From a virus: a stretch of DNA of 64,000 nucleotides. The stretch lies in IMG/VR virus record IMGVR_UViG_3300031578_000014. One strand, given 5' to 3'. The notes under the pieces are model-generated. The model was not told the DNA's origin. It was given only the letters and a program-made list of their open reading frames with translations, and ran no database searches. Both the position numbers and the translations under genes were made by a program. Shown piece after piece: positions 21,937-38,271 of this stretch (the first letter of the stretch is position 1; every line of letters begins with the position of its first letter).

Positions 21937-23586
21937 ATGGCAAGTAAAGTAGAGCGGGCAATCCCCGACAAGATCTATTCAAAACAGCCTCGGTTCCTGG
22001 ATCCCAAACAGGTATTTGGCTCGGTGTTCGGATGGGTACAGCGCGCCGACATGGAGGAGAAACCATACCAGGCTAACTCTATGGCTAGGGATCAATGGCT
22101 GCGCGGTTTCATTCGCAGGGAACCCCACCTCTTGGGAGTGATGAACTCAGTCATCTCGATCGACAAGAACAGGGGTTGGTCTATCGTCGGCGGGCGCAAC
22201 CAGGTCATTCGCTTCACGAATGTGATGCACTCCGCAGAGCACGGCGCGGGGTGGAGGTACTACCTCGGGAGAGGGGCTAAAGGCTTCTACAACGCGGACC
22301 TGGGGTTCATCGGGGAAACCGGCCGCGACGGCAAGGATGGACCATTGAGGGCCCTCTACAACGTGGATTCGGCCCGGTGCCGTCTGACCGGCAACTGGGA
22401 GGAACCCCTCACATACAGGGCAAGACAGGGCGGAGAGTTCAATTGGGCGCCCGGTGACTTCTTCCGCGTAACGCCGATGCCGTCGGACGAAGAAGCCCTG
22501 TTCGGTTTGGGGTTGTGCGCCGTCAGTAGGTGCCTCGATCTGGCGAAGATCATGATCGCCATCTATGAACACGACCAGGAGAAACTAGGCGCTCGCGCTC
22601 CTAAAGGGCTGCTGCTCCTCCAGAACATCGCTGAGAGCACGTGGGAAGAGGCTATGGAGGCCAGGGAAGACAAGCTGACCGCAAAGCAACGCGATTGGTA
22701 CGGGGGCGTGGCTGTACTCGCTTCTGAGGCGGCAGGTGGAGAATCGATGGACGCTAAACTAGTCGCCCTTTCTCAGCTGCCCGAAGGGTTCGACCTAGAG
22801 AAGTTTACCAACCTCTTGATGTACGGGTATGCCCTTGCCTTTGGATACGACCCCTCGGAGTTCTGGCCGGTACAGTATGGATCCCTGGGGCGGGGCACGG
22901 AGACGGAGATTCAACACAGGAAGGCCACCGCCAAGGGAGAGATGGACTTCACTACCGGATACCAGGAAGCGCTACAGGAAGAACTACCTGAGACCCTGCA
23001 TTTCGAGTTCGAGCAGAGGGACATCGGGGGAGAAATCCTGGACGCGGAGCTCACTGAAAGGGTCGTGGGGTGGGTAACTCAGGCGTATGAGACCGGTCTG
23101 TTACAGGGCCAGCCGCTTCTAACCAGGGAACAGGCGATCTCCCTTCTGGTGGAGAAGGGCGTAGTGCCGGAGGAATGGACTGCGATCGAGGAAGACGTAG
23201 AAGGCACTGACGTGGAGGACGTGGACCGCTGGCGCAAGGTGCAGCGGCAACGCGCCCTAGAGATGCCTCGGGTGAGGCTGGCTATCGAAGCCTTCCCTGA
23301 GGAGCCAATCATCAAATACATCTATGACCCCGTCAAGCACCCGCTTGGGAGAGAACTGTACTTGTGGGATAGGGCAGCGGACGCGGTGGCCCGCAAGAGT
23401 TGGAGGGTGATCAAGCGTGAGACCGGAGAGGTGATCTATTCCGAGGGCGGAGTGACGATCACTGAGGAAGACGTGAACAGGGCTATACAGGAGGGCGGCA
23501 AGAGAGTCGATCCGGAGCTCGCAGAACTGTTCACGGCTCCTGAGGGGACGGAGAGATCATTGTGGCAGCGGATTCTCGGACGATGA
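21937..23586 (+). CDS. portal protein (by size and position)
   Basis: 549-aa ORF following the terminase genes; no motif check possible. Confidence 0.55.
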   Translation: MASKVERAIPDKIYSKQPRFLDPKQVFGSVFGWVQRADMEEKPYQANSMARDQWLRGFIRREPHLLGVMNSVISIDKNRGWSIVGGRNQVIRFTNVMHSAEHGAGWRYYLGRGAKGFYNADLGFIGETGRDGKDGPLRALYNVDSARCRLTGNWEEPLTYRARQGGEFNWAPGDFFRVTPMPSDEEALFGLGLCAVSRCLDLAKIMIAIYEHDQEKLGARAPKGLLLLQNIAESTWEEAMEAREDKLTAKQRDWYGGVAVLASEAAGGESMDAKLVALSQLPEGFDLEKFTNLLMYGYALAFGYDPSEFWPVQYGSLGRGTETEIQHRKATAKGEMDFTTGYQEALQEELPETLHFEFEQRDIGGEILDAELTERVVGWVTQAYETGLLQGQPLLTREQAISLLVEKGVVPEEWTAIEEDVEGTDVEDVDRWRKVQRQRALEMPRVRLAIEAFPEEPIIKYIYDPVKHPLGRELYLWDRAADAVARKSWRVIKRETGEVIYSEGGVTITEEDVNRAIQEGGKRVDPELAELFTAPEGTERSLWQRILGR

Positions 23587-25260: not shown

Positions 25261-25270
25261 CAGGAGTCAA

Positions 25271-26242
25271 ATGAGAATCGCCTTCACTGAGCAAACGGTA
25301 ACCAAGACCTTCGGGAGCACTCGTCGGATAGTCGAACTTTCCAACGCCCTGAAAGTCTTAGGGCATGATGTGACGGTCTACACGAAGAACGGGCAGCCGC
25401 CCAAGTGGATCCCGCTCTTTACGCCCGTAAAGCTATGGTCGGCGATTAGGGGAACTTACGACCTGGCTCTGTTCAACAACTCCAAGCCGGACGAACTACG
25501 CTTAGTGAGGAAGACAGACGCGAAGGTCCGCGCCTTCTACGTCCTGGGGTGGGGAGAGACCAGGCTGGACGACATCGAGCAGCACATTAAGGGAGGCAGC
25601 CCGGACCCAGGGATAAGGGTGATCAGAAGCGTCTTCGACGATCCGGAGTTCTTGGTGCTGGCTTGCTCGACGTGGATAGGGCAGCACCTCCGAGACCGAT
25701 ACAGAAACGATGCCGAAACGCTGTTAGGGGGCATCAACCGGCAGCACTTCCGCCCATACCCCAAGGCCAAGGGGTTAAGGGTCTACTACTCGGGGGACCC
25801 GCGAAAGCGCAAAGGCACCGACACTACCAGGAAGGCGATTAGCCAGATGATTCACCGGATGAATCACACGGCCATTGCCCGCACCTACTGGGGAGAGGGT
25901 TTGAGTCAGGTGCAGATGGGGCAATGGTATTCGGAGGCTACGATCTTCGCCGACGGGCAACTATGGGCGGGATGGAACAACCCCGTCCTCGAGGCGATGG
26001 CCTGCAAGACCCCGGTAGTCTGTACGGACATCGGAGGGGTAAAGGATTTCGCCTTTGATGGGGAAACGGCACTGCTGGTGCCACCTAAAGACGTGGACGC
26101 TATGACGGAGGCGTTGATTCGTTTGGTCAAGGATCAGGCATTGAGAGATCGGCTGGCGCAGAATGCTTACAGTCACGTTAAGCAGTTTGCATGGGAGAAG
26201 ACGGCGAGAAGGTTAGTTCAGTTAGTGGAGGAGCGACTGTGA
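25271..26242 (+). CDS. glycosyltransferase, GT-B fold (GT1/GT4-like)
   Basis: EAMACKTPVVCTDIGGVKDFAFDGETALLVPPKD C-terminal sugar-donor motif. Confidence 0.8.
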   Translation: MRIAFTEQTVTKTFGSTRRIVELSNALKVLGHDVTVYTKNGQPPKWIPLFTPVKLWSAIRGTYDLALFNNSKPDELRLVRKTDAKVRAFYVLGWGETRLDDIEQHIKGGSPDPGIRVIRSVFDDPEFLVLACSTWIGQHLRDRYRNDAETLLGGINRQHFRPYPKAKGLRVYYSGDPRKRKGTDTTRKAISQMIHRMNHTAIARTYWGEGLSQVQMGQWYSEATIFADGQLWAGWNNPVLEAMACKTPVVCTDIGGVKDFAFDGETALLVPPKDVDAMTEALIRLVKDQALRDRLAQNAYSHVKQFAWEKTARRLVQLVEERL

Positions 26243-26451
26243 TAGGTGCCTATCTCATAGATGCGTACTTTCGACAACGGAACCTCTTCGATAGGCTGCA
26301 TGAGGAAGAGACGCGAATGGGAGAGATCATCGAGGAGGCAAGCAAGGCATTCGAGCTAGAGAACGGACACCCTCCAATCACTCAGGCAGAGAAGAAACGA
26401 GCACTACTGAATCACGTAATCGCGGAGAGGGAGGCTAGGGACACGAGATGA
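26239..26451 (+). CDS. hypothetical protein
   Basis: GTGA overlap start in track ORF 26191..26451; 3' end repeated at 26979-27014. Confidence 0.45.
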   Translation: MIGAYLIDAYFRQRNLFDRLHEEETRMGEIIEEASKAFELENGHPPITQAEKKRALLNHVIAEREARDTR

Positions 26452-26708
26452 CAACCGATGCAGAAGTGCAAGGGGTATTCGAGGAGTTCTGGCAGCCTAT
26501 CGTCATGCCTAACGGGGAATGGAATCTGGAGCAGGTCAAGCGGGAACTCTATGACTACCGCCGGATGATGACAAGCGTTTCTGAGGTCTATGACCAGATC
26601 ACAAATGGCCGGATCAGTAAGCCAAACACAGACGCTTCAGTAGTGATAGACGAAGCCGACGATGTGGTGAATGACCTTATCCGGGAGGCTACCGCGAAAG
26701 GTGTGTGA
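26448..26708 (+). CDS. hypothetical protein
   Basis: Track ORF, ATGA overlap. Confidence 0.55.
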   Translation: MTTDAEVQGVFEEFWQPIVMPNGEWNLEQVKRELYDYRRMMTSVSEVYDQITNGRISKPNTDASVVIDEADDVVNDLIREATAKGV

Positions 26709-27027
26709 GCATGGCGCCAAGCCTACGCCCGTCATATTGTGGGATGAAGATAGACAGGACATAAAGATTGCCAAGGTTGATCCTTGTCTTGCTTGTACGA
26801 TACATGAACTGAACGCCAGGGGAATCAGAACGATTGCGTGTTGTTGTACGCACGGGAAGTGGCCCCATGCCTCCATTCGGATTCAAACAGCCGACGTACA
26901 ACGGGCAGAAAATGTGGGGCACCATGCCATCTATCACGAAGGCTGCTGGTCAGTTGAAATACCGTACTGGTTATTGCAGAAGAAACGAGCACTGCTGAAT
27001 CACATAATCGCGGAAGGGGGAGCATAG
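26701..27027 (+). CDS. Cys-rich hypothetical protein
   Basis: GTG 26701 in track ORF 26671..27027; CLAC...CCCTH motifs. Confidence 0.45.
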   Translation: MCEHGAKPTPVILWDEDRQDIKIAKVDPCLACTIHELNARGIRTIACCCTHGKWPHASIRIQTADVQRAENVGHHAIYHEGCWSVEIPYWLLQKKRALLNHIIAEGGA

Positions 27028-27032
27028 TCACC

Positions 27033-27395
27033 ATGATACTACTAAACAGCCTCGTGAGCATTGCTTGGGTAGTCCTGATCTGCATACTTGGCGCGCTGTT
27101 CATCTATAGCCTACTGATCGTACCACATCTAGAACACAAGGCGACAGGGAAGCGTTTGGCCGAGATGGACGCTCAGGAGGATCAACTGCCAAAGGTAGGC
27201 CCCGCGGAATTCTGGTGCCAACGCTATGAATACCTCTCCCGCATCCAGCAAGCTAGAGATCGGCGTTCCCGGGACATCGAAGACGCGTGGGTACGGTATT
27301 GGAAGGAGCTGGTAGCGATAGAAGCCGAGTTCGCTGAGCTAGAGGCATCACAAGGGGAGAACGAATGCGATACAAGCGCCTGCGCAGATGCCTAA
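27033..27395 (+). CDS. membrane-anchored hypothetical protein
   Basis: N-terminal TM LVSIAWVVLICILGALFIYSLLIV. Confidence 0.55.
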   Translation: MILLNSLVSIAWVVLICILGALFIYSLLIVPHLEHKATGKRLAEMDAQEDQLPKVGPAEFWCQRYEYLSRIQQARDRRSRDIEDAWVRYWKELVAIEAEFAELEASQGENECDTSACADA

Positions 27396-27613
27396 ACCCC
27401 AATTGTCTGCATACAGTGGGCGGCGGCAAGATGACCCTCGAATCAACCTGGGTCAAGGAGTACGTTAGGCTGACCTGTCAGAGGTGCGGGGCGATTAGCG
27501 TATTCAATCCCATAGGGAAGGTCTCTCCTGATTTGAGGCGCCACATCTACGTTCAGAGGGGCAGGGGACCTATAGAGCACGTGTTTCCAAAGTCCAGAGT
27601 ATTGAGGGTCTGA
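27365..27613 (+). CDS. zinc-ribbon hypothetical protein
   Basis: CLNPNC...CQRCG. Confidence 0.5.
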   Translation: MRYKRLRRCLNPNCLHTVGGGKMTLESTWVKEYVRLTCQRCGAISVFNPIGKVSPDLRRHIYVQRGRGPIEHVFPKSRVLRV

Positions 27614-27616
27614 GAG

Positions 27617-27850
27617 ATGCACTGGGACGGCGACAAGATCATCAGCGACGGGCTAGACAAGAAGGCCGCTCAGGAAGTGCGGGAGAAGGGGCTACTGACT
27701 AGGCTGAACCGCGTGCTGACGCCCGAGGGGTACGTGCTGTTCTATACCTATGACCCCGAGCGCGTAGGCGAACCGGACGCCTTGGTGGGGCTGAGTATTG
27801 AGAGGTATAAGCCCAAAGAGGGAGAGAAGAGCCTGGCGGTGATGGGATGA
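27617..27850 (+). CDS. hypothetical protein
   Basis: Track ORF. Confidence 0.5.
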   Translation: MHWDGDKIISDGLDKKAAQEVREKGLLTRLNRVLTPEGYVLFYTYDPERVGEPDALVGLSIERYKPKEGEKSLAVMG

Positions 27851-28590
27851 ATAGCGCGGCATTCTGGATAGCAGCCGGGGAGCCGTATCTTAGAGAAGCG
27901 GTCAAATCGGCGCAGAGCCTGCGACGGCACATGCCAGATGTAGTGCGGGTACTCCTGACACAGAATATGTATCTAGGTTCCTATATCCGCGATACGGCGG
28001 CGTTCAATGAGGTCATCGGGATGGTGAATCCCGAACCTGACGAACCGTGGTATCCGTTCAGCATCGCGTGTTTTGAGTGGGCGGCGCGCAATCTTCAGGC
28101 GCCTTTGCTAGAGCCTACTCCCGATGTGCTTATCAATCTGGACGTTGATACCTATGTGATCCAGCCCTTCTATGATCTGCTGGAAGTGCTGACACGATTT
28201 GACGTAGTAGGGACGCATGCGCCGGCACGCTACACGAGCAGGACCATAGGGCCCGTTCCGGAGGCCTTCTGCGAGCTCAATCTAGGCATGCTCGCCTTTC
28301 GCAACAGCGACAAGATGAGGGGAGTGCTCAGGGAATGGGCGCGGCGCTACGAAGCGCATAAGGACGTCTACGGTGACAACGACCAGGCTTCTCTCAGGGA
28401 AACCCTCTGGAGAACGGAGGATGTGAGGATTTGGGTAGCGCCTCCCGAGTATCATTTCAGGTTCATCTTCGGGGGGTTCGCACGGTATCCAGTGAGGGTG
28501 CTGCATGGACGGGCGGAAGACATTGAGCAAGTGGCCTACAGGGTGAACAAGCCTCTCGGAATGAGGATATGGAAGAAGGGGGAGTTGTAA
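27847..28590 (+). CDS. putative nucleotide-diphospho-sugar (GT-A, GT8-like) glycosyltransferase
   Basis: INLDVDTYV DxD motif and LNLGMLAF downstream. Confidence 0.5.
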   Translation: MNSAAFWIAAGEPYLREAVKSAQSLRRHMPDVVRVLLTQNMYLGSYIRDTAAFNEVIGMVNPEPDEPWYPFSIACFEWAARNLQAPLLEPTPDVLINLDVDTYVIQPFYDLLEVLTRFDVVGTHAPARYTSRTIGPVPEAFCELNLGMLAFRNSDKMRGVLREWARRYEAHKDVYGDNDQASLRETLWRTEDVRIWVAPPEYHFRFIFGGFARYPVRVLHGRAEDIEQVAYRVNKPLGMRIWKKGEL

Positions 28591-28787
28591 TGGGAGCAGC
28601 GACACGTAGTCCCCGAAAGGTCGTAAAGGTAACTGATCCGAGCTATTCACCGCCCCGATTCTATCGACTCAGGCATCGATGGTCCTTGATAGATTGGGGA
28701 TTGTTCCGGGCGGCGTTAGTGGGTCATTTGACCGCACTACTAACTGTTCTACTGATCTTGATTGTACTTGAGATGTGTACTGGATGA
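28590..28787 (+). CDS. small membrane protein
   Basis: TAATG overlap; C-terminal TM LTALLTVLLILIVLE. Confidence 0.4.
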   Translation: MGAATRSPRKVVKVTDPSYSPPRFYRLRHRWSLIDWGLFRAALVGHLTALLTVLLILIVLEMCTG

Positions 28788-28801
28788 AGGGAGAGGGAGC
28801 T

Positions 28802-29200
28802 ATGATGTACCAGTGCGAATACTGCAAGACCAGACACGAAGAATGGACGCCCAACTGCCCCAAGTGCGGGGGGCCTCTGAAAGTCCCTAAAGGCACCTTC
28901 TACTTACACCGGCCACGTTGTCCCAGATATTCACTCCCGGTTGATGAAATCCTTCCCGAAGACCCGAAGGGCTGGGGAGAATGGTTTTCAGAATATGCCT
29001 TCGTAGACGCGTTAAATCATACACCTTCGGGTAAGGCACCTCCCGCAGAGGACTTCCGGATCGAACCGTATGAGGAGATAGACGAAGACAGGGGTTGTTT
29101 CGCAGAAAGGCATCCGAACCTTGACCGCGTTGGACAAGCCTTATCAATAGCGATTCTGGTTGCGGCGATGAGCTTGCTGATACTGCAGGCCTTGGCATAA
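28802..29200 (+). CDS. zinc-ribbon protein with C-terminal TM
   Basis: ATG behind GAAGGGAGAGGGAGC; CEYC..CPKCG; SIAILVAAMSLLILQALA. Confidence 0.55.
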   Translation: MMYQCEYCKTRHEEWTPNCPKCGGPLKVPKGTFYLHRPRCPRYSLPVDEILPEDPKGWGEWFSEYAFVDALNHTPSGKAPPAEDFRIEPYEEIDEDRGCFAERHPNLDRVGQALSIAILVAAMSLLILQALA

Positions 29201-29211
29201 AGGAGGGAGCT

Positions 29212-29424
29212 ATGAACGGAGCGATATGGTACGAAGGCACAGGTGGCGTTGGAGGATCCCCAGACGGAGTAGTGATGATAGATAAGATCGTGAATATCAC
29301 CGAGGACGACAAGCATCACTATACGCTTATTCATCTTGTTGATGGGGGGCTGATTAGGAGTCAGACTAGCGTGGCTGAACTAAGGGGTAGAATCAACTCT
29401 CTTCTCGGGGGAAGAGAACTGTGA
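29212..29424 (+). CDS. 'MNGAI' family protein, paralog 1
   Basis: MNGAIWYEGTGGVGGSPDGVVMIDKI. Confidence 0.55.
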   Translation: MNGAIWYEGTGGVGGSPDGVVMIDKIVNITEDDKHHYTLIHLVDGGLIRSQTSVAELRGRINSLLGGREL

Positions 29425-29461
29425 CCCATCACTTCATCAACCTGAAGACAAGGAGGGAGAC

Positions 29462-29767
29462 ATGAACGGAGCAATACAATATGAGGCGAGCCGCGGGGTA
29501 GGCGGAAATCCGGATGGGATAGTGGTGATAGACAAGGTCAAGTCTATCCAGGAGACAAGGTACGGCTACAGGCTCATTCTTCTCAGCGACGGTAGCCAAA
29601 TCAGGACCAGAACAACCCTGTTCGACTTGGGCAGGAGAATCAATGACGTGGCGGCTTTCCTTGCCCAGGAACAACCTACAGTCTGTAACATCGTGGCCTT
29701 GCCCGAACCCTTGCCCGGGCAGCCGCTCAGATCAGGGGACAAACCACGGCCGCTCAAGGAGGGATGA
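29462..29767 (+). CDS. 'MNGAI' family protein, paralog 2
   Basis: MNGAIQYEASRGVGGNPDGIVVIDKV. Confidence 0.55.
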   Translation: MNGAIQYEASRGVGGNPDGIVVIDKVKSIQETRYGYRLILLSDGSQIRTRTTLFDLGRRINDVAAFLAQEQPTVCNIVALPEPLPGQPLRSGDKPRPLKEG

Positions 29768-29898
29768 ACATGAATCAACTATTCGAGGCAATCTTTACGG
29801 TTTGGGCGATGTGCCTCATTGTAGCCGCGATGGTCGCCTTGCCCATCTTGGTGATCTGGCACGTAGTAACGGGTTCTCTCAGGTGGCTTGACGGATGA
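29764..29898 (+). CDS. 44-aa membrane peptide
   Basis: MNMNQLFEAIFTVWAMCLIVAAMVALPILVIW...; ATGA overlap. Confidence 0.35.
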   Translation: MNMNQLFEAIFTVWAMCLIVAAMVALPILVIWHVVTGSLRWLDG

Positions 29899-29948
29899 TC
29901 CACCACTTCATCAACCTAAGCGCCAACATATAAGAAGGGGAGGGAGCC

Positions 29949-30179
29949 ATGAACGGAGCGATCAGATACGGGACGACAGATGGGAGGTTTAGCGGTGTGG
30001 CCGTCATAGACAACATCACACACATGGATGAGGCGGCGGATGGGTACGTGTGGATCTATTTCAACGATGGAACTAGCGTTCGCAGTTCAACCGCTATCGA
30101 CACGCCGCAGAAGAGAATCTATGAAGCCGTTGTAGAGATAGCCCGCGCTTGCCAGTTCACTATATTGGAGATGGAATGA
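29949..30179 (+). CDS. 'MNGAI' family protein, paralog 3
   Basis: MNGAIRYGTTDGRFSGVAVIDNI. Confidence 0.55.
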   Translation: MNGAIRYGTTDGRFSGVAVIDNITHMDEAADGYVWIYFNDGTSVRSSTAIDTPQKRIYEAVVEIARACQFTILEME

Positions 30180-30667
30180 TCCGCCACTTCATCAACCTGA
30201 GCGGGGGCTTAGAAGCGATAGAAGGACTCGAAGCGTTTGAATTCGTGCGCATCCGCTCCACCGACTGTGAGCACAAGATGGGGCCTCCTCAGTGGGAGGC
30301 TATTCTAGCAGAGCTGGATGCGAACTTCCTCATGGCCCTGGCTCGGGGCGATGACTGTAGAGTCTATGATTCCTCGGCGGAAGGGGAATCGCACGCCCTC
30401 AGGTGGGGACTGGCATGGATCCGGTTCGTCTTGAACGCGGCATGGTTCGGCAGGGTGACGCGGCCGGTGATGATAGACGGCGAAGACAGGAGCGGCCTCT
30501 TTCACCGGGCGTGGAGAAAGACAGGCAAGAGGACCAGGCGCAAGATACGGTACTTCCGGAACTTCCTCACTACAGACGAAATCCGCCTTGAATCCGTGTG
30601 TGTCAAGGCCAAGCATGACGGCAACTGGAAATACTACAGGGAGGCGCTAACAAATGCCGGAAGATAG
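30176..30667 (+). CDS. hypothetical protein ('MIRHFINL' gene, the intact copy)
   Basis: ATGA overlap start in track ORF 30149..30667; its first 8 codons recur as stubs at 29421 and 29895. Confidence 0.55.
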   Translation: MIRHFINLSGGLEAIEGLEAFEFVRIRSTDCEHKMGPPQWEAILAELDANFLMALARGDDCRVYDSSAEGESHALRWGLAWIRFVLNAAWFGRVTRPVMIDGEDRSGLFHRAWRKTGKRTRRKIRYFRNFLTTDEIRLESVCVKAKHDGNWKYYREALTNAGR

Positions 30668-30926
30668 GGTCATTGTAATCGTCGAGACTCATTCGCCACT
30701 TGACTTAGTTAGAAAGAGGCTGAGTGCTCAATACTGTTTCAAGAAGCCAGCGGACGCCGTTATCTGCGGGCGTAATCTCTATGAGGCCGTCAAGTTGGAG
30801 GCTGCGAGATTGGAAGGCTTTACGATGCCTCCGACAGAGGGGCCGGAGCCTAAGCTGATGGGCAAGGAGTTCTATGTTAGCGACGATCTTGAGCCTAACG
30901 AAATCATCATAGGACAAAGAAGCTAG
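30654..30926 (+). CDS. hypothetical protein
   Basis: Track ORF. Confidence 0.5.
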   Translation: MPEDRVIVIVETHSPLDLVRKRLSAQYCFKKPADAVICGRNLYEAVKLEAARLEGFTMPPTEGPEPKLMGKEFYVSDDLEPNEIIIGQRS

Positions 30927-30936
30927 GCGGTGTGTG

Positions 30937-31290
30937 ATGGCGAGAGATAGAATCTGCATTGATTTCGACAATGTCATCCACTTGATGGACTGGGAACCCG
31001 GCCAGAGCATCGCCCAGATAGAAGGGGATCCGGTGCCTGGAGCCAAGGAGGCGATCGCCCTGCTGAGGGAGAGGTATGAGGTAGTGGTCCTGTCAGCGCG
31101 TGCGGACAGTGTGAAGCGCAAGCGTGCTATAGCGCGTTGGTTAAAGGAACAAGGGATAGTCGTGGATCAGATCACTGCCATGAAGTTGCCGGCGCTGATG
31201 TATCTGGACGACAGGGCGGTGCACTTCTACGGACAGTGGGAGGAAACGCTGAGGGACATCGCAGCCTTTAGGCAATGGAGGGGGCAATGA
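30937..31290 (+). CDS. HAD-superfamily phosphatase-like protein
   Basis: ICIDFDNVIH (DxDxV motif I), VVVLSAR (motif II), YLDDR (motif IV). Confidence 0.55.
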   Translation: MARDRICIDFDNVIHLMDWEPGQSIAQIEGDPVPGAKEAIALLRERYEVVVLSARADSVKRKRAIARWLKEQGIVVDQITAMKLPALMYLDDRAVHFYGQWEETLRDIAAFRQWRGQ

Positions 31291-31463
31291 GATACGTGAT
31301 CATTGCCGCGGTCTGCTTGGTAGTCAGCGCGCGGCTGTTCGGCTACGCGATGCACGGTCTACCCTTCGCCGTCGCGGGGGTAGCAGGGGCGTTCTTCAGC
31401 CTGATGGGGTTGGGCGCGGTCCGGGCTATCTCAGACGATTCGAGGAGAGGGAGATGGGACTGA
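31287..31463 (+). CDS. small two-TM membrane protein
   Basis: MRYVIIAAVCLVVSARLFGY..VAGVAGAFFSLMGLGAV. Confidence 0.45.
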   Translation: MRYVIIAAVCLVVSARLFGYAMHGLPFAVAGVAGAFFSLMGLGAVRAISDDSRRGRWD

Positions 31464-31660
31464 CAGCGGCAAGCGTGCAGAGGGGCGTGAGCATCATGCT
31501 AGAGCGTCTGCGGGCCTACCCATTTGGCTATCCAAGCCCAGGCATGACCGGCCTCCCGTCGGAGATGATTGATGCAGCTAAACGGTGGCCTGAGGCATTT
31601 TCGCCCGAGGAACTAGCACTCTTGAACACGTTGGAGAAGGACCGGGAGGAGACTAGATGA
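31454..31660 (+). CDS. hypothetical protein
   Basis: Track ORF. Confidence 0.5.
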   Translation: MGLTAASVQRGVSIMLERLRAYPFGYPSPGMTGLPSEMIDAAKRWPEAFSPEELALLNTLEKDREETR

Positions 31661-32388
31661 TCGTCATCGTCTTGGGCATGCACCGTAGCGGAACGTCTCT
31701 CGTCTCCTCCGTTCTACACTCTATGGGTGTGAAGATGGGGGAAGAGGTACACCTGGAGCGGAGGGACCCCGACAGCCAGCCTCAGGGCTATTGGGAGGAC
31801 CAAGACTTCACCTCCCTCAATCGGTTGATCATCAGGGACGCGAAGGGCCACTGGCACCGCCCCCCGAAGAGAGAACGCATCCTACAGGCCGCGCGGGGTT
31901 GGAATGAGGACATGGCCCAGATCATCGCGACGAAACAGAAGGTCATGGAAAGCGAGAACCTGGCGGCGCGGACGCTAACGGGGGCGAGCAGCTGGATCGG
32001 TTGGGGATGGAAGGACCCCCGGAGCTGCCTCACTATCGAAGCGTGGTGGCCGCATCTTCTGGAGCGCGATATACGTTTCGTGCGGGTGCGGAGGGAAAGG
32101 CGGGCGATCATTGACAGCCTCATCAGGAGGGGCGAGCAGTTGGGCAATGTGCCGCTGGCGGAGCAGCGGGCGGCATGGATCCCCGTCATTCAGGACCACG
32201 AGAACCGGATCACGAACTTCTTCGTCAGGACGGGCAGTCCGTGCATCGACATCCACTATGAGCATCTGGTGAATCGGGGCGGGCACATCGCGCCACTGAC
32301 CAAGATCGCAGACCTGCTCGGGTTGGAAGGGCGGCAATTCATCGAGGGCCTGCAGGCAGCGGAGGCCAGGATAGAGTTCAGGGGGTAG
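31657..32388 (+). CDS. sulfotransferase-like protein
   Basis: VIVLGMHRSGTSLV = PAPS 5'-phosphosulfate-binding loop; WKDPRSCLT resembles the 3'-phosphate motif. Confidence 0.65.
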   Translation: MIVIVLGMHRSGTSLVSSVLHSMGVKMGEEVHLERRDPDSQPQGYWEDQDFTSLNRLIIRDAKGHWHRPPKRERILQAARGWNEDMAQIIATKQKVMESENLAARTLTGASSWIGWGWKDPRSCLTIEAWWPHLLERDIRFVRVRRERRAIIDSLIRRGEQLGNVPLAEQRAAWIPVIQDHENRITNFFVRTGSPCIDIHYEHLVNRGGHIAPLTKIADLLGLEGRQFIEGLQAAEARIEFRG

Positions 32389-32390
32389 GA

Positions 32391-32930
32391 GTGGACAACT
32401 ACATTGTCGAGAAGGCAACGGGCGAGAAGTGGTGGAATCTCATTCTCAAAAGGGTGAAGGCAAACGATGAAGTTAGCGAGCAGCCCTTCCGTCTCTTGGT
32501 AGACTGGAGCCTACTGAGTGAGCCTATTCCTGTCAAGCTAGCGGTGTGGACTCCAGGCCGGACGGTAGTTGCCCATAGTGAGATCAGGGACTTGGGAACG
32601 GCGGCCGGCCTGCGCATCGCGGGATTGAGCAACACCGTGGTCGCCCCCGGCTATCGCCGCCAGGGAATCTATACCGCCTTGATCAAGTTGCGGAATGCCA
32701 TCCTGGATGGTAGCGACTTCGACTGCGTTGCCGCCCGCGTGAAGAAGGGCTTCGAAGACCGATACATGGCGCAATACAATCCTCAGTTTCTAGGTTTTAC
32801 GTGCGTAAAGAAAGAGGACGCGTATGGTGCGGCCTGGCTACTACGGCCAATCCATTACTGGGATCACCTTGCTGTAGAGGAAGAGAAACCGATCATGAAT
32901 CACCTCGAGACGAAGGTGAAGAAATGGTGA
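32391..32930 (+). CDS. GNAT-family N-acetyltransferase
   Basis: VVAPGYRRQGIYTALI = GNAT motif A (R/Q-x-x-G-x-G/A). Confidence 0.6.
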   Translation: MDNYIVEKATGEKWWNLILKRVKANDEVSEQPFRLLVDWSLLSEPIPVKLAVWTPGRTVVAHSEIRDLGTAAGLRIAGLSNTVVAPGYRRQGIYTALIKLRNAILDGSDFDCVAARVKKGFEDRYMAQYNPQFLGFTCVKKEDAYGAAWLLRPIHYWDHLAVEEEKPIMNHLETKVKKW

Positions 32931-33544
32931 ACTACAGGGCCTTCGTGGGCAAAGAAGCGGAGTATGATAGGCGCGGGGCGGTGCAGTTCGTCGTTCTGAC
33001 CATGCTCGGCCTGCGTGAGCATCACTACCTGCTGGACATCGGCTGTGGATCTCTCAGGGGAGGGAGGTTGTTTATCCCCTACCTGTTGCCCGGAAGATAT
33101 TGCGGGATAGACCGTCCCGAGACCCAACCTATCGTAGAGGAAGGGCTCAAGAACGAACTAGGGGAAGGCGGGGCGAAGGATCCGCTCTTCATGTATAGCG
33201 ACAAGTTCTCCTTCGGCGGATTCGGGTGCAAGTTCGACTACATTCTAGCGCAGGCGGTGTTCTGCCACATCACCCTGGCAGAGATCAGTACCTGTATGGA
33301 ACAGGCGCGACTTGTCATGAAGAAGGAATCCGTCTTCGTGGTATCCTTCCACGCGGCGGAGATAGACGACAAGAGAGAAAAGCTAACCTACCCCGAAGTG
33401 GCGTGGTACCGGATGGACACGATCCGAGGACTGGCGGCCGACGCCGGACTTTCCTGCAATCGGTTGAACCGAGTCATGCTGGGGGCGACGAATCTTCACG
33501 AACAGTATAGCCGCATGGCCTGGGTGGCGATGCGGCTCAGCTAG
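32924..33544 (+). CDS. class I SAM-dependent methyltransferase
   Basis: ATGGTGA overlap start; LLDIGCGSLRGG motif I. Confidence 0.6.
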   Translation: MVNYRAFVGKEAEYDRRGAVQFVVLTMLGLREHHYLLDIGCGSLRGGRLFIPYLLPGRYCGIDRPETQPIVEEGLKNELGEGGAKDPLFMYSDKFSFGGFGCKFDYILAQAVFCHITLAEISTCMEQARLVMKKESVFVVSFHAAEIDDKREKLTYPEVAWYRMDTIRGLAADAGLSCNRLNRVMLGATNLHEQYSRMAWVAMRLS

Positions 33545-33563: not shown

Positions 33564-34196
33564 ATGTGGAAGTGGAATAGCCGAGCTCGGCGCTACTACA
33601 ACGACGAAACCGGACAGTTCATGCCCAGGACTACGGTGCTCAATTACGTGCAGGGGAGCATCAACGCCGGCGGGTTGGTTACAGACACGCTAGCTGATCT
33701 CGTGACCCAGGGACGGTTGTCCCCTCCCGATTGGCGCGACATGATGCGCGAGGAGATCAAGAGGGAATACATCAGGCAATACCTGTTAGGGATCGGCGGG
33801 CGAGACCAGATGACCTTCGAGGACTGGGGGCGGCTCGGGGGAATGCTCAAGGAGCAGTATGGGTACCTTGAGGGCTTCTATAAGGAGATTGACAAGCTCT
33901 CGGAAGGTCAGGTAGCCGTCAGGGCGAGGATGTACTCTGCCAGTGCTCGAGAGGCATACGAAAGGGCGAACGGGCAGGCCTGGGGCGGAGCTCCGTTGCC
34001 AGCCTATCCCGGGGACGGAAGCACCATTTGTCTAACGAACTGCGCCTGCAACTGGGAGATCCACAGCGCCGAGGCGGAGGAAGAGCGCATGCGGTGGACC
34101 TGTTATTGGAGGTTGGGCGCGGTGAAGACGGAGCACTGCGACGATTGCGTGGGGAGAGCGATGACATGGAACCCCCTCATAGTAGAGGCGGCATGA
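33564..34196 (+). CDS. minor head protein (MuF/SPP1 gp7-like), tentative
   Basis: Position in the head module; LTNCACNW resembles the C-terminal NCRC motif of MuF-like proteins. Confidence 0.4.
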   Translation: MWKWNSRARRYYNDETGQFMPRTTVLNYVQGSINAGGLVTDTLADLVTQGRLSPPDWRDMMREEIKREYIRQYLLGIGGRDQMTFEDWGRLGGMLKEQYGYLEGFYKEIDKLSEGQVAVRARMYSASAREAYERANGQAWGGAPLPAYPGDGSTICLTNCACNWEIHSAEAEEERMRWTCYWRLGAVKTEHCDDCVGRAMTWNPLIVEAA

Positions 34197-35672: not shown

Positions 35673-35687
35673 ATCCTCTCAATCAGC

Positions 35688-35722: not shown

Positions 35723-36569
35723 TAGACGTTGCTCCTCTGTTCGCGAAAGTCGGCTTTGCATGCCGTGCGCTTGACAGCCTAGCGACAGAGGCGCTACTTT
35801 TACTAAAGTTCAGAAATGGTGGAAGACCATGTGCGACAGAATAGAAGATTGTAGACTACGCCAAATCATTCTCTATGCCCATGAACATTACGGGGACGAA
35901 TGAATCCCTTGGCAGGTAGCCTTGATTAGCTGCCAGAAGGCGACAGAACAGGACTTGGAATGGGCCAAGAAACAGGCTGTAGAATTGGGCTTAGAAGATT
36001 TAGCTGGTGTGTGTTTAGAGAAATCGTAGGCAGCGGGGCGCTGCCTAGCTCCCCCGGCACATAGTATGGCCGGGCCGACAGCCCCGAGGGGCTTGTCTCT
36101 GGCTTCGCTGGCTGTGCCGCAAACAGCCCGCTGGTGGAGGGTGACGGGAGTAATCCTGCCCACCCCTGGCTTTTGCCCCTGAGCCTATCAGGGGCCTCTG
36201 GTCCGGGGAACCTGTCGCTATCGTTCTATCCGCCCACCGGCTGCGGATTGGGAAGCTGCCGACAAACAGCCGGAAGGCTATCGACGGCGTGACGGGCCTG
36301 GACTATTCCCACTGTCCCTTACCACATGATATAGCGCCGGGAGGCGGCAAGTACCCCGGCATGAGAAAGTAAGGGCACCGGCGGACCGCCCGACAAGGTG
36401 CCCAACGAGCCGATGAGCCAGGGAGCGATCCCCGGCTCTTTCTGCATACAGAACGTATACGATTGACTACCAAACGTATACGCTGAGTAGTTTAACACTG
36501 AATAGTTTACCCATGTAAAGCGTGAGCCATTGCGCCGTTCGGGAGTCGCTTCCCGGGCGGCGCTTTTTT
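35723..36569 (+). ncRNA. candidate long structured non-coding transcript (unclassified)
   Basis: Bounded by promoter 35688-716 and terminator 36532-69; no + strand ORF of 60 aa or more; many GC helices incl. a GGAA tetraloop hairpin. Confidence 0.4.
36532..36569 (+). terminator. intrinsic terminator
   Basis: GCGCCGTTCGGGA-gtcgct-TCCCGGGCGGCGC (13 bp incl. 2 G:U) followed by TTTTTT. Confidence 0.8.
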
Positions 36570-36891: not shown

Positions 36892-38271
36892 ATGAATGCT
36901 TTGGAGAGGTTGCGGGAAAGAATAAGCGCCGCCTTTGCGGAGGCGCTAGAGCCCTCGATCAAGGAGTCAAACGAGGAAGCAAGGGCGATCTCGGGCTGCG
37001 ACATGATAGCGCAGGTATATGCCCAGCTATGGGATTCGACCGATGAGCTGCTGAGGAACGCGTGGCTTCTGGATTTCTTCCTTGACGATGGCGTGCTCTA
37101 CATGGTCATCGCGAGTGAGGGCAAGCTATACCGCGCGAAGCTTGACGTCGACTCAGCGACAGATACGGTGATCTTGGGTGAGTGGCAACAGATCAAGGTA
37201 GACCATGTGCCCATCGAAACGAGGCTTACGGTAGAGCGCCAGGCAGACGGCAGGTGCCGGTTCGTGGCGATCGCCAACACGGCGATTCTGAACCGCGTCG
37301 GCGAGATCGACAGTATGGCCTTGTTCGACAACTTCATCCAGCGTGCCGAGGATAGCGGAAAGTACCCCTACGTCACCTTCTACCACATCAGCAATGAGAA
37401 GCTCCTCCCTACGTTCCGCATGGGTCAGTGTGACTACCTGGCTCGAGATGAGGTGGCCTACATCGTCACCGGCTTGCTAGACGAATCGACGCCTCTCGGT
37501 GCGGATATGGCGCGTGCCCTAGAGGAGAACGCCGAGATTTGGGGCACGTCTATCGGATTCAACCCCACGGCCCCGCCTGAGCTGGCGGAGATCGGCGGGG
37601 TAAGGATTCCCGTATATCGCGAGGGGGAGCATAGCGAGCTGTCGCTCATTCTGAAGGAAGATGCGGCGGCTCTCTTCACGGCAGTTATTAGAGAGGAGGT
37701 TAGCATGGACAGCAGAATCGCCAAGGCGCTAGAAGCGCTTGGACTGAGCGAGGAGCGGATCGCGGAACTCGGTACTTTGGTCGATGACGTCAAGCACCGT
37801 GTCAAGGATGAGGATATGGTGACGCGAGAAATCGAAGAGGCACCCGCGGAGACACCAGAAGTAGTGCTCGTAGAAGAGTTGGTAGAAGAGCCTGTGGAAG
37901 AGCCCGCAGAAGTGGTACTCGATGAGGAAGCACTGCCCGCGCTCGCCGAAGGACTCCTGAGTTCCGAACCCTTCCAGGGGATTCTCGTGCCCATCGTAGA
38001 GAGCCTGGAGGCGCTTGGCAAGAGGCTCGAAGAGGCGGTGGCTACACTGACCGCAACCCAGACGGAGGCGCTGGAGCCGATCCGTACCAGGCTCGATCAG
38101 TTGGAGCGGACCGACGACGAGAAGAAGGACGAGTGGATGAAGGACTTGCCCGCCAAACGGCAGCTCACTGTGAAATACCGTGCGCCGGGTAGGGAGCAGG
38201 GTGAACCGGCCCCTAAGACTTATGCGGAAACGGCTGAGGAAACCGTAGCCGCGATCAAAGGAGGCGCATAA
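36892..38271 (+). CDS. prohead protease / scaffold fusion (HK97 S78-like), tentative
   Basis: Position before the capsid gene; YVTFYHIS...VTGLLDES...WGTSIGFNPT protease-like core; long acidic coiled C-terminal half. Confidence 0.55.
   Translation: MNALERLRERISAAFAEALEPSIKESNEEARAISGCDMIAQVYAQLWDSTDELLRNAWLLDFFLDDGVLYMVIASEGKLYRAKLDVDSATDTVILGEWQQIKVDHVPIETRLTVERQADGRCRFVAIANTAILNRVGEIDSMALFDNFIQRAEDSGKYPYVTFYHISNEKLLPTFRMGQCDYLARDEVAYIVTGLLDESTPLGADMARALEENAEIWGTSIGFNPTAPPELAEIGGVRIPVYREGEHSELSLILKEDAAALFTAVIREEVSMDSRIAKALEALGLSEERIAELGTLVDDVKHRVKDEDMVTREIEEAPAETPEVVLVEELVEEPVEEPAEVVLDEEALPALAEGLLSSEPFQGILVPIVESLEALGKRLEEAVATLTATQTEALEPIRTRLDQLERTDDEKKDEWMKDLPAKRQLTVKYRAPGREQGEPAPKTYAETAEETVAAIKGGA

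Follow-up and report, generated by a model that had tools for sequence, protein, structure and literature searches.

A probable sulfated glycan coat on the particles of an uncultivated temperate phage, made by enzymes encoded among its head genes

The viral genome IMGVR_UViG_3300031578_000014 carries a series of transferase genes among the genes for its head, raising the question of what these enzymes build and on which acceptor they build it. We analysed a stretch of 64,000 nucleotides from this IMG/VR record (the window), which represents a novel, temperate, siphovirus-like phage lineage and encodes a serine recombinase at 61684-63126. The best explanation, to which we give an even chance, is that the island between the putative portal and MuF-like genes and a dual GT2 glycosyltransferase further downstream are two halves of one phage-encoded pathway for glycan synthesis and decoration, carried in late head-morphogenesis operons. 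The product would be a sulfated glycan coat, a modification as yet shown, to our knowledge, in no phage.

All features described here between 21937 and 41886 lie on the + strand. The upstream boundary of the island is a putative portal gene (21937..23586, 549 aa), named by its position after TerL (19844-21235; 52% identity to a Rhizobium phage TerL) and a DNA methyltransferase; its product is kept at 42-64% identity in all lineage loci and gave no match in PHROGs, NCBIfam, the PDB or 50,697 phage records. The downstream boundary is a MuF-like minor head protein (33564..34196, 210 aa), which matches phrog_24776 (6e-28), a family of unknown function, and contains a conserved CxxC ... PGxGxTxCLTxCxC motif of the MuF type; elsewhere in the lineage, this position is taken by canonical Phage_Mu_F proteins. 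In all lineage loci, a scaffold-like protein with an acidic coiled-coil C-terminus (36892..38271, 459 aa; no family match) is encoded directly upstream of the putative major capsid protein (38271..39656, 461 aa). The latter, labelled by position and a candidate glycan acceptor, is the most conserved protein of the lineage (42-79% identity); its invariant residues include twelve Cys and, in a conserved C-terminal tail, S440 and S447. Homology searches revealed no similarity to known capsid families, so that any placement "next to the capsid gene" depends on a positional annotation. The portal and MuF-like labels of the original prediction likewise drew no support from homology searches, but gene order, the MuF-type Cys motif and the Phage_Mu_F proteins of relatives are consistent with them, and we retain these labels, together with that of the capsid, as putative.

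The distance between the putative portal and MuF-like genes, predicted at about 10 kb, measures 9.98 kb and is filled with tightly packed genes, all on the + strand, that overlap (ATGA) and have Shine-Dalgarno sites. Between 21 and 40 kb, the sole strong terminator-like site is a hairpin at 36532..36563 (14-bp stem with 10 GC pairs, then a T-run), which resembles an intrinsic terminator and ends the portal-to-MuF transcription unit. The view of this region as a simple inserted island has to be abandoned, since minimal relatives already hold a methyltransferase and a sulfotransferase between portal and MuF and the GC3 of the enzyme genes (0.67-0.82) matches that of the structural genes. The island is not a recent insertion: it occupies an expandable slot that separates the putative portal gene from the scaffold-like gene and of which no larger version is known. 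Among relatives, this slot ranges from 0 to 12.9 kb and has repeatedly taken up genes for glycosyltransferases, sugar-nucleotide enzymes and methyltransferases, along with sulfotransferases of at least three families; its contents include GT2 and GT1-like enzymes, Methyltransf_24, FkbM methyltransferase, epimerase, UDP-glucose dehydrogenase and Sulfotransfer_1/2/3, with two adjacent sulfotransferases in some loci.

Each of the seven enzymes named beforehand was found in its place by Pfam, PHROG, profile searches or structure prediction, which establishes their families and conserved catalytic motifs; the transferase assignments hold, the GT-A enzyme having needed structure prediction and the GNAT being recognised by fold only. 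The GT4/GT1-type GT-B glycosyltransferase (25271..26242, 323 aa) matches Glyco_trans_1_4 (1.5e-18) and Glycos_transf_1 (4.5e-18) in Pfam and an EpsE/MshA-like C-terminal domain in NCBIfam. The product of 27847..28590 (247 aa) has no Pfam or PHROG match and only 12 homologues among 5.8 billion proteins, in which D99xD101 and an NDQ motif are invariant. Its AF2 model (pLDDT 78, pTM 0.81) retrieved glycogenin, alpha-1,3-GalT, BoGT6a, LARGE1 and GlyE with Foldseek at E about 1e-9, with TM values of 0.55-0.62 against the GT6 and LARGE1 matches and 0.42-0.54 against glycogenin, to which the sequence profile is weakly related (0.12); similar viral GT-A proteins are present in BFVD. The predicted structure and the motifs confirm it as a retaining-type GT-A glycosyltransferase with a GT8/GT6-like fold. 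Its gene always directly follows that of a conserved 77-aa protein (g77, 27617..27850); in L005 and L007, 59-69% identical homologues of this protein are encoded directly in front of the GT-A counterpart. The dual GT2 (39704..41572, 622 aa with a C-terminal extension of ~190 aa) forms the core of the module and contains two PF00535 domains (3.7e-38), in which the DD/NQD and DDxS/DD motifs and a 'CC' are invariant; its best PDB match, K4 chondroitin polymerase (3.6e-19), is reached only through a generic half-domain.

The decorating enzymes are encoded towards the end of the island. The PAPS-type sulfotransferase (31657..32388, 243 aa) passes the PF13469 cut-off (29.3 bits versus 27), and 40 homologues share an invariant 5'-PSB-like LGMHRSGTS, E47, GWKDPR and the 3'-PB R146-x7-S154; its profile matches TPST (7.7e-8), the CurM sulfotransferase (8e-7) and Stf1 in the PDB. 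Searches returned 21,510 cluster representatives at E ≤ 1e-10, and the subfamily occurs in at least 79 IMG/VR viral loci. PF13469 genes have been noted in relatives of OM43 phages and Synechococcus phage S-SRM01, where their "function ... remains unclear" (PMC10580990), and such a sulfotransferase is listed as a viral auxiliary gene reported earlier (PMC8290583), so phage-borne sulfotransferases as such have been described before. Two points count against the favoured explanation: sulfation is accessory, the A1-type enzyme being present in just about 15% of the lineage members in IMG/VR, and no PAPS-synthesis genes are encoded, so that PAPS must come from the host. The class I SAM-dependent methyltransferase ("MT12"; 32924..33544, 206 aa) stays below the Pfam gathering score, while its family profile finds PDB structures of class I SAM methyltransferases (3e-8); its motif LLDIGCGSLRGG is invariant, and it adjoins the sulfotransferase in minimal relatives (the L008 group) and lies near it in L007. 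The predicted GNAT-fold acyltransferase (32391..32930, 179 aa) has only 10 homologues, all lineage-type, and sequence evidence below threshold, Pfam included; the top 50 Foldseek matches of its AF2 model (pLDDT 89.9) are essentially all GNAT-fold acyltransferases, with RimI, NatD and Ard1 the best at E about 1e-6. The minimal HAD-superfamily phosphatase (30937..31290, 117 aa) matches phrog_1238 (8.2e-13) and, weakly and below threshold, Pfam (0.068); motifs I-IV (DFDNV / VLSAR / K..DD) are kept in four homologues, one of which has a sulfotransferase as its neighbour in L081, an unrelated locus. A conserved 163-aa protein (g163, 30176..30667; no Pfam or PHROG match) travels with the HAD gene, its homologues (54-58% identical) adjoining the HAD homologue in L005/L006 and L007.

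The proposal that sulfate and acetyl groups decorate the glycan stands as far as the presence of the enzymes goes, but for sulfotransferase and GNAT alike the best relatives of known structure act on proteins rather than sugars, which counts against a glycan acceptor, and sulfate and acetyl groups may be placed on something other than a sugar. We consider it rather improbable that the glycosyltransferases act on virion proteins while the sulfotransferase, GNAT and methyltransferase modify side chains or termini directly, by tyrosine O-sulfation, N-terminal or lysine acetylation and methylation. Such a scheme would fit the TPST1/2 enzymes as the best PDB relatives of the sulfotransferase profile (7.7e-8 to 1e-5, with the 'RSGT' PSB loop in common), the protein N-alpha-acetyltransferases (RimI, NatD, Ard1, NatA/C) as the best structural relatives of the GNAT, and the acidic C-terminal tail of the putative capsid protein, which has a Tyr in most members (EESYHPEE / ETSFYPE). 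However, this Tyr varies, even in members that carry the sulfotransferase (WF in L005; FF in L007 and L016), the TPST similarity is confined to the PAPS-binding core, PF13469 also includes the carbohydrate sulfotransferase NodH (PMC11625862), and the subfamily is repeatedly fused to or flanked by glycosyltransferases and sugar-nucleotide enzymes.

Comparison with relatives (53 IMG/VR lineage loci plus others, 45 with enough sequence) established a lineage-wide synteny. In 41 of the 45, the dual GT2 gene follows the putative capsid gene at a distance of no more than 3 kb, and in 44 it is found somewhere downstream. At least six diverged sublineages have sulfotransferase homologues of 33-60% identity in the interval from portal to scaffold/capsid. 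Fusions join the sulfotransferase to MT12 (P0194, 6e-58; P0234, 2.7e-65), to GT1 (P0167) and, as a pair of sulfotransferases, to GT2 (P0225); a GT2-like partner is weakly supported in P0155 (E=1e-5) and was recognised by sequence inspection only in P0143. In L095, the order is capsid, GT1 (the GT-B homologue) and dual GT2, and in the distant relative L149 scaffold and capsid genes are followed by a contiguous cassette of epimerase, GT, sulfotransferase-MT12 fusion, MT24, GT2, two sulfotransferases and a GT1-GT2-GT2 fusion, in which the GT-B homologue is joined to the dual GT2. At the sequence level, these fusions and the clustering show the sulfotransferase, methyltransferase and glycosyltransferases to be functionally coupled. 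Together, the fusions and the whole kit contiguous after the L149 capsid gene argue for one glycan pathway, and the synteny likewise bears out the earlier idea of a single toolkit that includes the dual GT2.

The least probable of the readings weighed here, and one we hardly credit, is that the slot is a permissive site for unrelated accessory genes ("morons") whose products each have their own target, be it a small molecule or something in the host. The hypervariable slot does also hold NUDIX, dCTP deaminase/dUTPase, CAP-domain and collagen-repeat proteins in relatives, and many small uncharacterised ORFs, an HslV-like peptidase and ABA-sandwich proteins in the window. Besides the fusions and the L149 cassette, a recurrent neighbourhood speaks against it: in 64 unrelated viral loci the sulfotransferase most often neighbours GT2 and SAM methyltransferases, with epimerases, GT1, terminases, capsid proteins and prohead proteases within 8 kb. 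The sub-blocks g77-GT-A, g163-HAD and sulfotransferase-GNAT are, moreover, kept in the window, L005 and L007.

If a single glycan pathway is accepted, its target could still be the host. It is unlikely, though worth serious consideration, that the enzymes build or decorate a host surface glycan (LPS, EPS, sheath or wall polysaccharide) through host lipid-carrier pathways during infection, with the aim of blocking superinfection or of changing the dying cell's surface, and not of modifying the virion. Gtr-type seroconversion is known for temperate phages, the present phage is temperate, the PHROG matches of the GT2 are annotated "GtrB-like", and in NCBIfam the glycosyltransferases come closest to EPS and teichuronic-acid enzymes. 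Small membrane proteins also count against the virion and could point to an envelope target: hydrophobic segments were read by eye in the translations of 27033-27395, 28590-28787, 28802-29200 and 31287-31463, of which the TM scan itself listed only the 31275-31463 ORF, and a DUF1360-like protein with two or three such segments (41569..41886, 105 aa) overlaps the dual GT2 stop with its start, is translationally coupled to that gene, has homologues after the dual GT2 in L005 and L007, and has a counterpart in L008 that matches PF07098 (1.6e-9). Against this, export and ligation machinery is absent, with no flippase, polymerase, ligase, GtrC-like or initiating phosphoglycosyl transferase found and no ORF with more than four membrane segments in the TM scan. 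Conversion genes usually lie near the attachment site and are expressed in lysogens, whereas the kit sits in late head operons >20 kb from the integrase, and the linkage of dual GT2 and capsid genes in 41 of 45 relatives is hard to explain by envelope remodelling.

DNA offers a further, very improbable target, whereby hydroxymethylated bases would be decorated with a modified glycan around packaging to evade restriction. Hypermodification of DNA with diverse glycans by phage glycosyltransferases has precedent, in pathways whose genes cluster with those for the C5 methyltransferase and 5mYOX (bioRxiv 10.1101/2023.12.21.572611). In the window, one C5-cytosine methyltransferase (1068-1943) is encoded along with three methyltransferases of the N6/N4 type, the kit adjoins packaging and head genes, the L008 sublineage has a TET-associated glycosyltransferase (TAGT, PF20691), and the variable dual GT2 tails contain HeH/HhH-like segments of the nucleic-acid-binding type in some relatives, which counts against the virion as well. 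Nevertheless, no TET/JBP (5mYOX), thymidylate-synthase-type hydroxymethylase or TAGT was found among the larger upstream ORFs of the window or in the checked downstream flank of the 73-kb contig, the glycosyltransferases lie >23 kb from the C5 methyltransferase, unlike the known clustered pathways, and the L008 TAGT is a separate gene near DNA methyltransferases, outside the head module.

We infer the acceptor, the order of steps, the identity of the sugars and the biological role, which may be shielding, adhesion or stability, as follows. The enzymes, soluble and cytoplasmic, would be made alongside the proteins of the head (portal, MuF, scaffold and capsid). Transcribed in one unit with the genes for the scaffold and the putative capsid protein, the dual GT2 would start and extend a short glycan from host nucleotide sugars, to which the GT-B (GT4-type) and the retaining GT-A (GT8/GT6-like) would add further sugars. 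MT12 would then methylate this glycan, the PF13469 enzyme sulfate it with host PAPS and the GNAT acylate it, while the small HAD phosphatase may trim a phosphorylated precursor or by-product. The acceptor would most likely be a head protein, such that virions are released with a methylated, sulfated glycan coat. A virion acceptor is suggested by the placement in the late head operon, by the lack of export and ligation machinery and by precedent in mycobacteriophages, whose capsid and tail-tube C-termini bear glycans from phage glycosyltransferases, according to the summary of Freeman 2023 given in PMC12619734.

The window represents the greater part of a phage genome of 73-76 kb, which was assembled independently from several samples. 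Between 1 and 60 kb every gene lies on the + strand, and the GC content is about 57%. The large terminase is 52% identical to Rhizobium phage terminases, and the window also encodes a tape-measure protein, a SleB-type peptidoglycan hydrolase and SbcCD-like proteins. Because a serine recombinase gene (61684-63126, - strand) is accompanied by an adjacent repressor-like HTH gene, we regard the phage as temperate; an ArdC-N antirestriction-like gene lies farther along the contig from the recombinase (entry names L090/L091). Four DNA methyltransferases (1068-4536 and 21232-21894) comprise one C5-cytosine and three N6/N4 enzymes, one of the latter (21232-21894) being wedged between the terminase and portal genes. 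Scans for tRNAs and Rfam families returned nothing, and a promoter scan stayed at chance level. The tail region contains proteins that are odd company for a siphovirus tail, namely a BNR/Asp-box repeat protein (45573-47057), a protein joining zinc-finger/TRASH-like motifs to an HNH nuclease domain directly 3' of the tape measure (50513-51919), and a Rax2/DUF5122 beta-propeller protein (51849-54140).

The putative portal (21937-23586) and major capsid protein (38271-39656) are named by position only. Neither has a match in PHROGs, NCBIfam, PDB profiles or a tblastn search of 50,697 deposited phage records, and searches for the identity of these proteins and of the protein p445 by PHROGs, NCBIfam, PDB profiles, tblastn and hhalign were all negative, including hhalign of the capsid-position protein against HK97- and SU10-type capsid profiles. 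Megablast of nucleotides 25000-34000 against the 50,697 records also found no match. Since neither these proteins nor the nucleotides find a match in the databases searched, the lineage is considered new, and it is notable in itself because its portal and capsid proteins resemble nothing known. The same capsid-position protein occurs on contigs binned in metagenome-assembled genomes of Anaerolineae (two), Chloroflexota and Gemmatimonadota, which hints at Chloroflexota as a possible host and makes a host other than an actinobacterium probable. An archaeal host, considered in view of a terminase 48% identical to those of Methanoculleus viruses, was ruled out by the SleB-type hydrolase, the Shine-Dalgarno sites and the bacterial contigs.

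Every enzyme named in the original prediction is present, and the transferase assignments are upheld by Pfam, profile, motif or structure-model matches. The GT-B glycosyltransferase (25271-26242) and the dual GT2 (39704-41572) pass Pfam thresholds easily, the latter matching PF00535 (3.7e-38) in two stretches, with the invariant motifs VDD...NQD in domain 1 and DDxSxD...DD in domain 2; an invariant GCCG occurs in its C-terminal extension. The 247-aa GT-A enzyme (27847-28590; GT8/GT6-like) has only 12 homologues among 5.8 billion proteins, and D99xD101 is invariant. It has no Pfam or PHROG match, and its profile reaches PDB glycogenin weakly (E=0.12); its AlphaFold model (pLDDT 78) can be superposed on glycogenin, alpha-1,3-galactosyltransferase, BoGT6a and LARGE1, all of them retaining GT-A enzymes (Foldseek, E ~1e-9).

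The predicted PAPS-dependent sulfotransferase (31657-32388) passes the PF13469 cut-off narrowly (29.3 bits against 27) in a full-length match (3-224), and most of its homologues carry precomputed PF13469 matches. In an alignment of 40 sequences the 5'-PSB loop L6-G7-M8-H9-R10-S11-G12-T13-S14, which aligns with the GMPRSGTT loop of TPST, is invariant except for S11 (at least 90%). A GWKDPR motif and the 3'-PB pair Arg146-x7-Ser154, in a region alignable with both TPST and the sulfotransferase of CurM, are likewise invariant among the 40 homologues, as is E47, the candidate catalytic base. PDB entries retrieved with the family profile are TPST1/2, the sulfotransferase domain of CurM and Stf1 from mycobacteria; we found no characterised member of this short subfamily. 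Genes for PAPS synthesis were not found in the window or in the downstream contig flank.

Three smaller enzymes complete the set. MT12, a class I SAM methyltransferase (32924-33544), has an invariant glycine-rich motif I, LLDIGCGSLRGG, and its family profile finds class I SAM methyltransferases in the PDB (E=3e-8); as a single sequence it scores 26.3 against a Pfam gathering score of 30. The HAD-like protein (30937-31290) matches phrog_1238 (8e-13) and displays motifs I (DxDx[TV]), II (S/T), III (K) and IV (DD) as CIDFDNV, VLSAR and K..PA..YLDD, conserved in four homologues; it falls below the Pfam threshold, and a PDB search with this protein alone returned nothing. The AF2 model of the GNAT (32391-32930; pLDDT 89.9) retrieves essentially only GNAT-fold acyltransferases as top Foldseek matches (E ~1e-6, TM 0.5-0.6). 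Its PF00583 score of 18.6 bits lies under the gathering cut-off of 20.7, and in place of the canonical motif A (R/Q-x-x-G-x-G/A) it reads R-R-Q-G-I-Y, ending in Tyr; acyl-CoA binding by this modelled fold is therefore plausible but not assured.

The gap between the putative portal and the MuF-like gene (33564-34196) spans 9.98 kb, into which about 27 genes are closely packed; many of these overlap, and Shine-Dalgarno sites are present. The only strong terminator in 21-40 kb (36532-36563) sits just 5' of the unit formed by the scaffold-like gene (36892-38271), the capsid-position gene and the dual GT2, near the end of a 1.2-kb stretch of the head module (35672-36892) that has no convincing ORF and no Rfam or tRNA match. 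Within this stretch, a 30-codon ORF (36721-36813; MPYTPETVPDYVPDDKADQWAKVWNSAYDT) is similar to the N-terminal extension seen on the MuF-like protein of the relative L014. Just 3' of the putative portal lie two tandem paralogues (23764-24120 and 24133-24561), both ending in ...VKELAAQG, the second with a Phage_ABA_S (ABA-sandwich) domain match. An HslV/proteasome-beta-like Ntn hydrolase with the N-terminus MTCIVG (24721-25260; phrog_1040, 1e-20), also present in the viral loci L007 and L141, adjoins the GT-B gene and could be an unusual prohead-processing protease. Three small ORFs (29212-29424, 29462-29767 and 29949-30179) are tandem paralogues that all begin MNGAI.YE..G, with one homologue in L007. 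The capsid-position protein itself has 12 invariant Cys over eight diverged relatives, including FGCCGLFDLC near its N-terminus, and a 471-codon antisense ORF lying exactly over its gene (38286-39701, - strand) can most likely be put down to GC-rich codon usage rather than to a true gene.

The enzyme genes between the portal and MuF-like genes had been described as an inserted island, but they are not a recent insertion, because their GC3 (0.67-0.82) matches that of the structural genes (0.71-0.77), being lower in small ORFs only, and because sulfotransferase homologues at 33-60% identity occupy the same slot in diverged relatives. An IMG/VR search with the capsid-position protein yielded 53 lineage loci, 45 of which have at least 3 kb of sequence after the capsid-position gene; the dual GT2 follows within 3 kb 3' in 41 of these 45 and anywhere downstream in 44, a linkage kept even though the proteins have diverged to about 40% identity. 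The minimal layout, seen in the L008 group of relatives with 44-62 kb genomes, consists of portal, a 48-aa ORF, MT12, sulfotransferase, MuF-like, scaffold-like, capsid-position protein, dual GT2 and a DUF1360 membrane protein. Two other relatives, L005 and L007, share the larger set of the window: GT-B, the conserved protein g77 (27617-27850) with GT-A, the conserved protein g163 (30176-30667) with HAD, sulfotransferase with GNAT, and MT12. Between the portal and scaffold genes, relatives have anything from 0 to 12.9 kb, and the 13.3 kb of the window exceeds them all.

Sulfotransferases of the same type as that of the window (A1-type) occur in 8 of the 53 lineage loci. A Pfam scan of 71 otherwise unclassified proteins from the portal-to-scaffold slot found GT2 (4), GT1-like (2), Methyltransf_24 (4) and one FkbM methyltransferase, together with Sulfotransfer_3 (3), Sulfotransfer_1 (3), Sulfotransfer_2 (1), epimerase/dehydratase, UDP-glucose dehydrogenase, NUDIX proteins and canonical Phage_Mu_F proteins. 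These contents identify the slot as a hot spot where the lineage gathers glycan-tailoring genes, and by these family assignments sulfation appears to have been recruited through more than one enzyme family. Adjacent sulfotransferase pairs are found in several lineage members (L115, L145 and L148). In two relatives a GT2 and GT1-like fusion of about 565 aa replaces the set of the window (L107:3024-4718 and L122:6811-8520). L007 carries, directly 3' of its portal and in the same slot as its sulfotransferase, a PAPS_reduct-family protein (L007:2369-3148; PF01507, 2.4e-6) that might tie in with sulfur-nucleotide metabolism; it lacks a homologue in the window. In L005, the DUF1360-like gene is followed by one for an Lcl_C-domain protein (L005:17241-18353), and since this domain family is associated with sulfated-glycan binding in Legionella, its place near a predicted sulfation kit is suggestive.

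Beyond the lineage, the sulfotransferase subfamily occurs in at least 79 IMG/VR loci, a lower bound because only two peptide patterns were used to find them, and an exhaustive profile search retrieved 21,510 cluster representatives at E<=1e-10. Across 64 dereplicated loci outside the lineage, the genes next to the sulfotransferase most commonly encode GT2 enzymes and SAM methyltransferases. Among larger genes up to 8 kb away there is an enrichment of GT1, epimerase/dehydratases, DegT aminotransferases and UDP-GlcNAc 2-epimerases, and terminases, capsid proteins and prohead proteases also lie within this distance. The best profile matches include tandem-sulfotransferase proteins and fusions of the sulfotransferase to MT12-type methyltransferases (P0194, MT12 HMM 6e-58; P0234, 2.7e-65). 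Other fusions join it to GT1 (P0167), to a GT2-like domain (P0155, E=1e-5; P0143, by sequence inspection only) or, in two copies, to GT2 (P0225). P0194 is encoded on L149, a distant lineage member whose scaffold is 31% and whose capsid-position protein is 22% identical (E=1e-7). There, contiguous 3' of the capsid-position gene, follow an epimerase, a TOD1/MUCI70-like glycosyltransferase, the sulfotransferase-MT12 fusion, MT24, GT2, two sulfotransferases and a 954-aa GT1-GT2-GT2 fusion. Another locus, L095, has the order capsid, GT1, dual GT2. Three independent lines, the neighbourhoods, the fusions and the contiguous kit of L149, therefore make the island and the dual GT2 parts of one module instead of an assortment of accessory genes, and we consider it likely that they serve a single glycan-decoration pathway, sulfation included. 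The proposal of a full toolkit for a decorated glycan is thus partly supported, namely as to a single pathway; the acceptor we infer.

That the pathway places its glycan on virion proteins is, in our judgement, an evenly balanced proposition, in which head proteins would be the acceptors of the phage-made glycan. It is favoured by the place of the module in late head operons, by the conserved linkage of the dual GT2 to the capsid-position gene, by the solubility of the enzymes and their distance from the integrase (see below), and by the precedent of mycobacteriophages, whose own glycosyltransferases add glycans at the C-termini of capsid and tail-tube subunits (Freeman 2023, relayed in PMC12619734). 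The C-terminal tail of the capsid-position protein is conserved, with Ser440 and Ser447 invariant, and by this analogy might, speculatively, provide a possible acceptor site. Against a virion acceptor stand the putative status of the capsid label, given the negative hhalign comparisons, the small membrane proteins in the island, the DUF1360-like membrane protein whose translation is coupled to that of the dual GT2, and the HeH/HhH-like segments that end the dual GT2 extension in some relatives. These membrane proteins bear on the main rival, remodelling of the host envelope, which we hold to be improbable. All kit enzymes are soluble, and predicted membrane segments number at most four in any ORF of the window, so that a flippase, a polymerase, a ligase, GtrC and an initiating phosphoglycosyl transferase are all missing from it; for Gtr-type seroconversion in particular, neither a GtrA flippase nor a multi-pass GtrC was found in the window. 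Nor does the kit lie near the integrase or attP as in a Gtr-type cassette: a stretch exceeding 20 kb separates it from the serine recombinase, and GT-B, GT-A and dual GT2 are all inside head operons.

A variant of decoration of head proteins is suggested by the closest solved relatives of two enzymes, TPSTs for the sulfotransferase and RimI/NatD for the GNAT, which could act directly on protein side chains. The candidate Tyr of the capsid-position protein is not conserved, however, PF13469 also includes the sugar sulfotransferase NodH (PMC11625862), and the fusions and neighbourhoods point toward sugars. Glycan hypermodification of DNA, pathways for which are described in phages (bioRxiv 10.1101/2023.12.21.572611), is an unlikely role for the kit. 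No TET/5mYOX, hydroxymethylase or TAGT gene turned up, by Pfam for the first two, in the larger upstream ORFs or in about 10 kb of the 73-kb contig beyond the downstream end of the window, and the C5 methyltransferase lies 23 kb from the glycosyltransferases. In the L008 sublineage, the TET-associated glycosyltransferase is a separate gene near the DNA methyltransferases. This gene (L008:3578-4402, also in L009 and L010; PF20691, 2e-40) adjoins an N6/N4 DNA methyltransferase, 5' of the terminase, and such relatives may glycosylate their DNA besides carrying the head-module kit.

Returning to a virion acceptor, the fullest reading is tentative and on balance doubtful: a whole lineage of uncultivated temperate phages, possibly on Chloroflexota, whose head proteins would carry a phage-made sulfated and methylated glycan, built by the capsid-linked dual GT2 and tailored by a short sulfotransferase subfamily widespread in viral and cellular metagenomes. 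Bolder still would be a processive dual GT2 whose product is a glycosaminoglycan-like sulfated polymer. If true, the reading would establish the first case of a bacteriophage particle that bears a sulfated glycoconjugate and define the short subfamily as glycan sulfotransferases, giving a function to more than 20,000 cluster representatives. Sulfated and methylated virion glycoproteins would make phage surfaces chemically richer than assumed, with a bearing on how phages adsorb to host sheaths or mucus-like matrices, on the charge of the particles and their stability in sediments, and on their recognition by immune systems. The enzymes would also offer compact soluble catalysts (~210-250 aa) for enzymatic glycan sulfation.

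As to known systems, sulfotransferase genes in phages are no new observation. PF13469 genes have been reported in OM43-phage-related viral genomes and Synechococcus phage S-SRM01, with a function called unclear (PMC10580990), and a phage sulfotransferase is listed among known viral auxiliary genes (PMC8290583). Viromes have listed such genes for years with no proposed role; unlike those reports, which lack pathway context, the gene here is embedded in a conserved glycosyltransferase and methyltransferase module in the head genes, and these partners and head assembly provide a testable context. The window sulfotransferase has no tblastn match to those earlier genes in the phage collection; tblastn of it and of a marine family member against the phage records gave one partial match, in the unverified, unannotated record "Pseudomonas phage Y4", which resembles a glycosyltransferase/sulfotransferase polysaccharide cluster and was set aside as uninformative. 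With TPST1/2, the CurM domain, Stf1 and NodH, the subfamily shares the 5'-PSB loop GxxRSGTS, with Arg for Lys, and the 3'-PB Arg...Ser, but it is short (~210-250 aa) and has its own invariant GWKDPR. Rhizobial NodH illustrates that sugars are substrates within PF13469 (PMC11625862).

Sulfated and methylated protein-bound glycans are known from Halobacterium salinarum, whose N-glycan involves two sulfotransferases, VNG1056C and VNG1057C (PMC11980604). Cytoplasmic sulfotransferases, sometimes two for two positions, act there alongside methylation as in the present model, whereas the archaeal pathway is dolichol-linked and uses a flippase and an oligosaccharyltransferase, none of which occur in the window. 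In giant viruses, virus-encoded, host-independent machinery with similar GT-A folds decorates structural proteins: chlorovirus PBCV-1 has multidomain glycosyltransferase/methyltransferase enzymes (PMC7826918), and Megavirinae glycan clusters include predicted, uncharacterised sulfotransferases (PMC11625862). Their hosts, however, are eukaryotic, their capsids unrelated and the homology at fold level only. Like the E. coli K4 chondroitin polymerase KfoC, the Pasteurella heparosan synthase PmHS2 and LARGE1, the dual GT2 joins two glycosyltransferase domains in one soluble polypeptide, and its best PDB sequence matches are KfoC (3.6e-19) and PmHS2 (2.4e-10). The KfoC match covers residues 192-318 only (N-terminal half, second GT2 domain) and is generic because this half-domain aligns to both KfoC domains; a KfoC-like polymerase was rejected on this ground, collinear homology of both transferase domains being absent. 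As for a supply of UDP-uronic acid, the window lacks a UDP-glucose dehydrogenase, and only one relative has one in its slot.

In some actinobacteriophages glycosyltransferase genes likewise accompany structural genes, and presumably methyltransferases can accompany glycosylation genes, as in the Corndog genome. The dual GT2 finds only partial, generic GT2 matches by tblastn among the 50,697 phage records (at most 37% coverage), the sole Mycobacterium-labelled one being M. avium gtfD, which is not a phage gene. In mycobacteriophages, according to accounts of Freeman et al. 2023 relayed in PMC12619734 and PMC12582341, decoration of capsid and tail-tube subunits by the phages' own cytoplasmic glycosyltransferases is proposed or shown, with glycans attached to C-termini. 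The present kit resembles that system in kind; unlike it, it is known from its genes, with glycosylation predicted, shares no sequence relationship and contains, in addition, a PAPS sulfotransferase, GNAT and HAD phosphatase. What is new is the context: a large subfamily of short sulfotransferases is systematically coupled to glycosyltransferases and one methyltransferase family and, in a single novel lineage of phages, forms part of head morphogenesis next to the lineage-defining dual GT2. Phage-encoded virion glycosylation being already known, sulfation is a candidate and testable extension of it.
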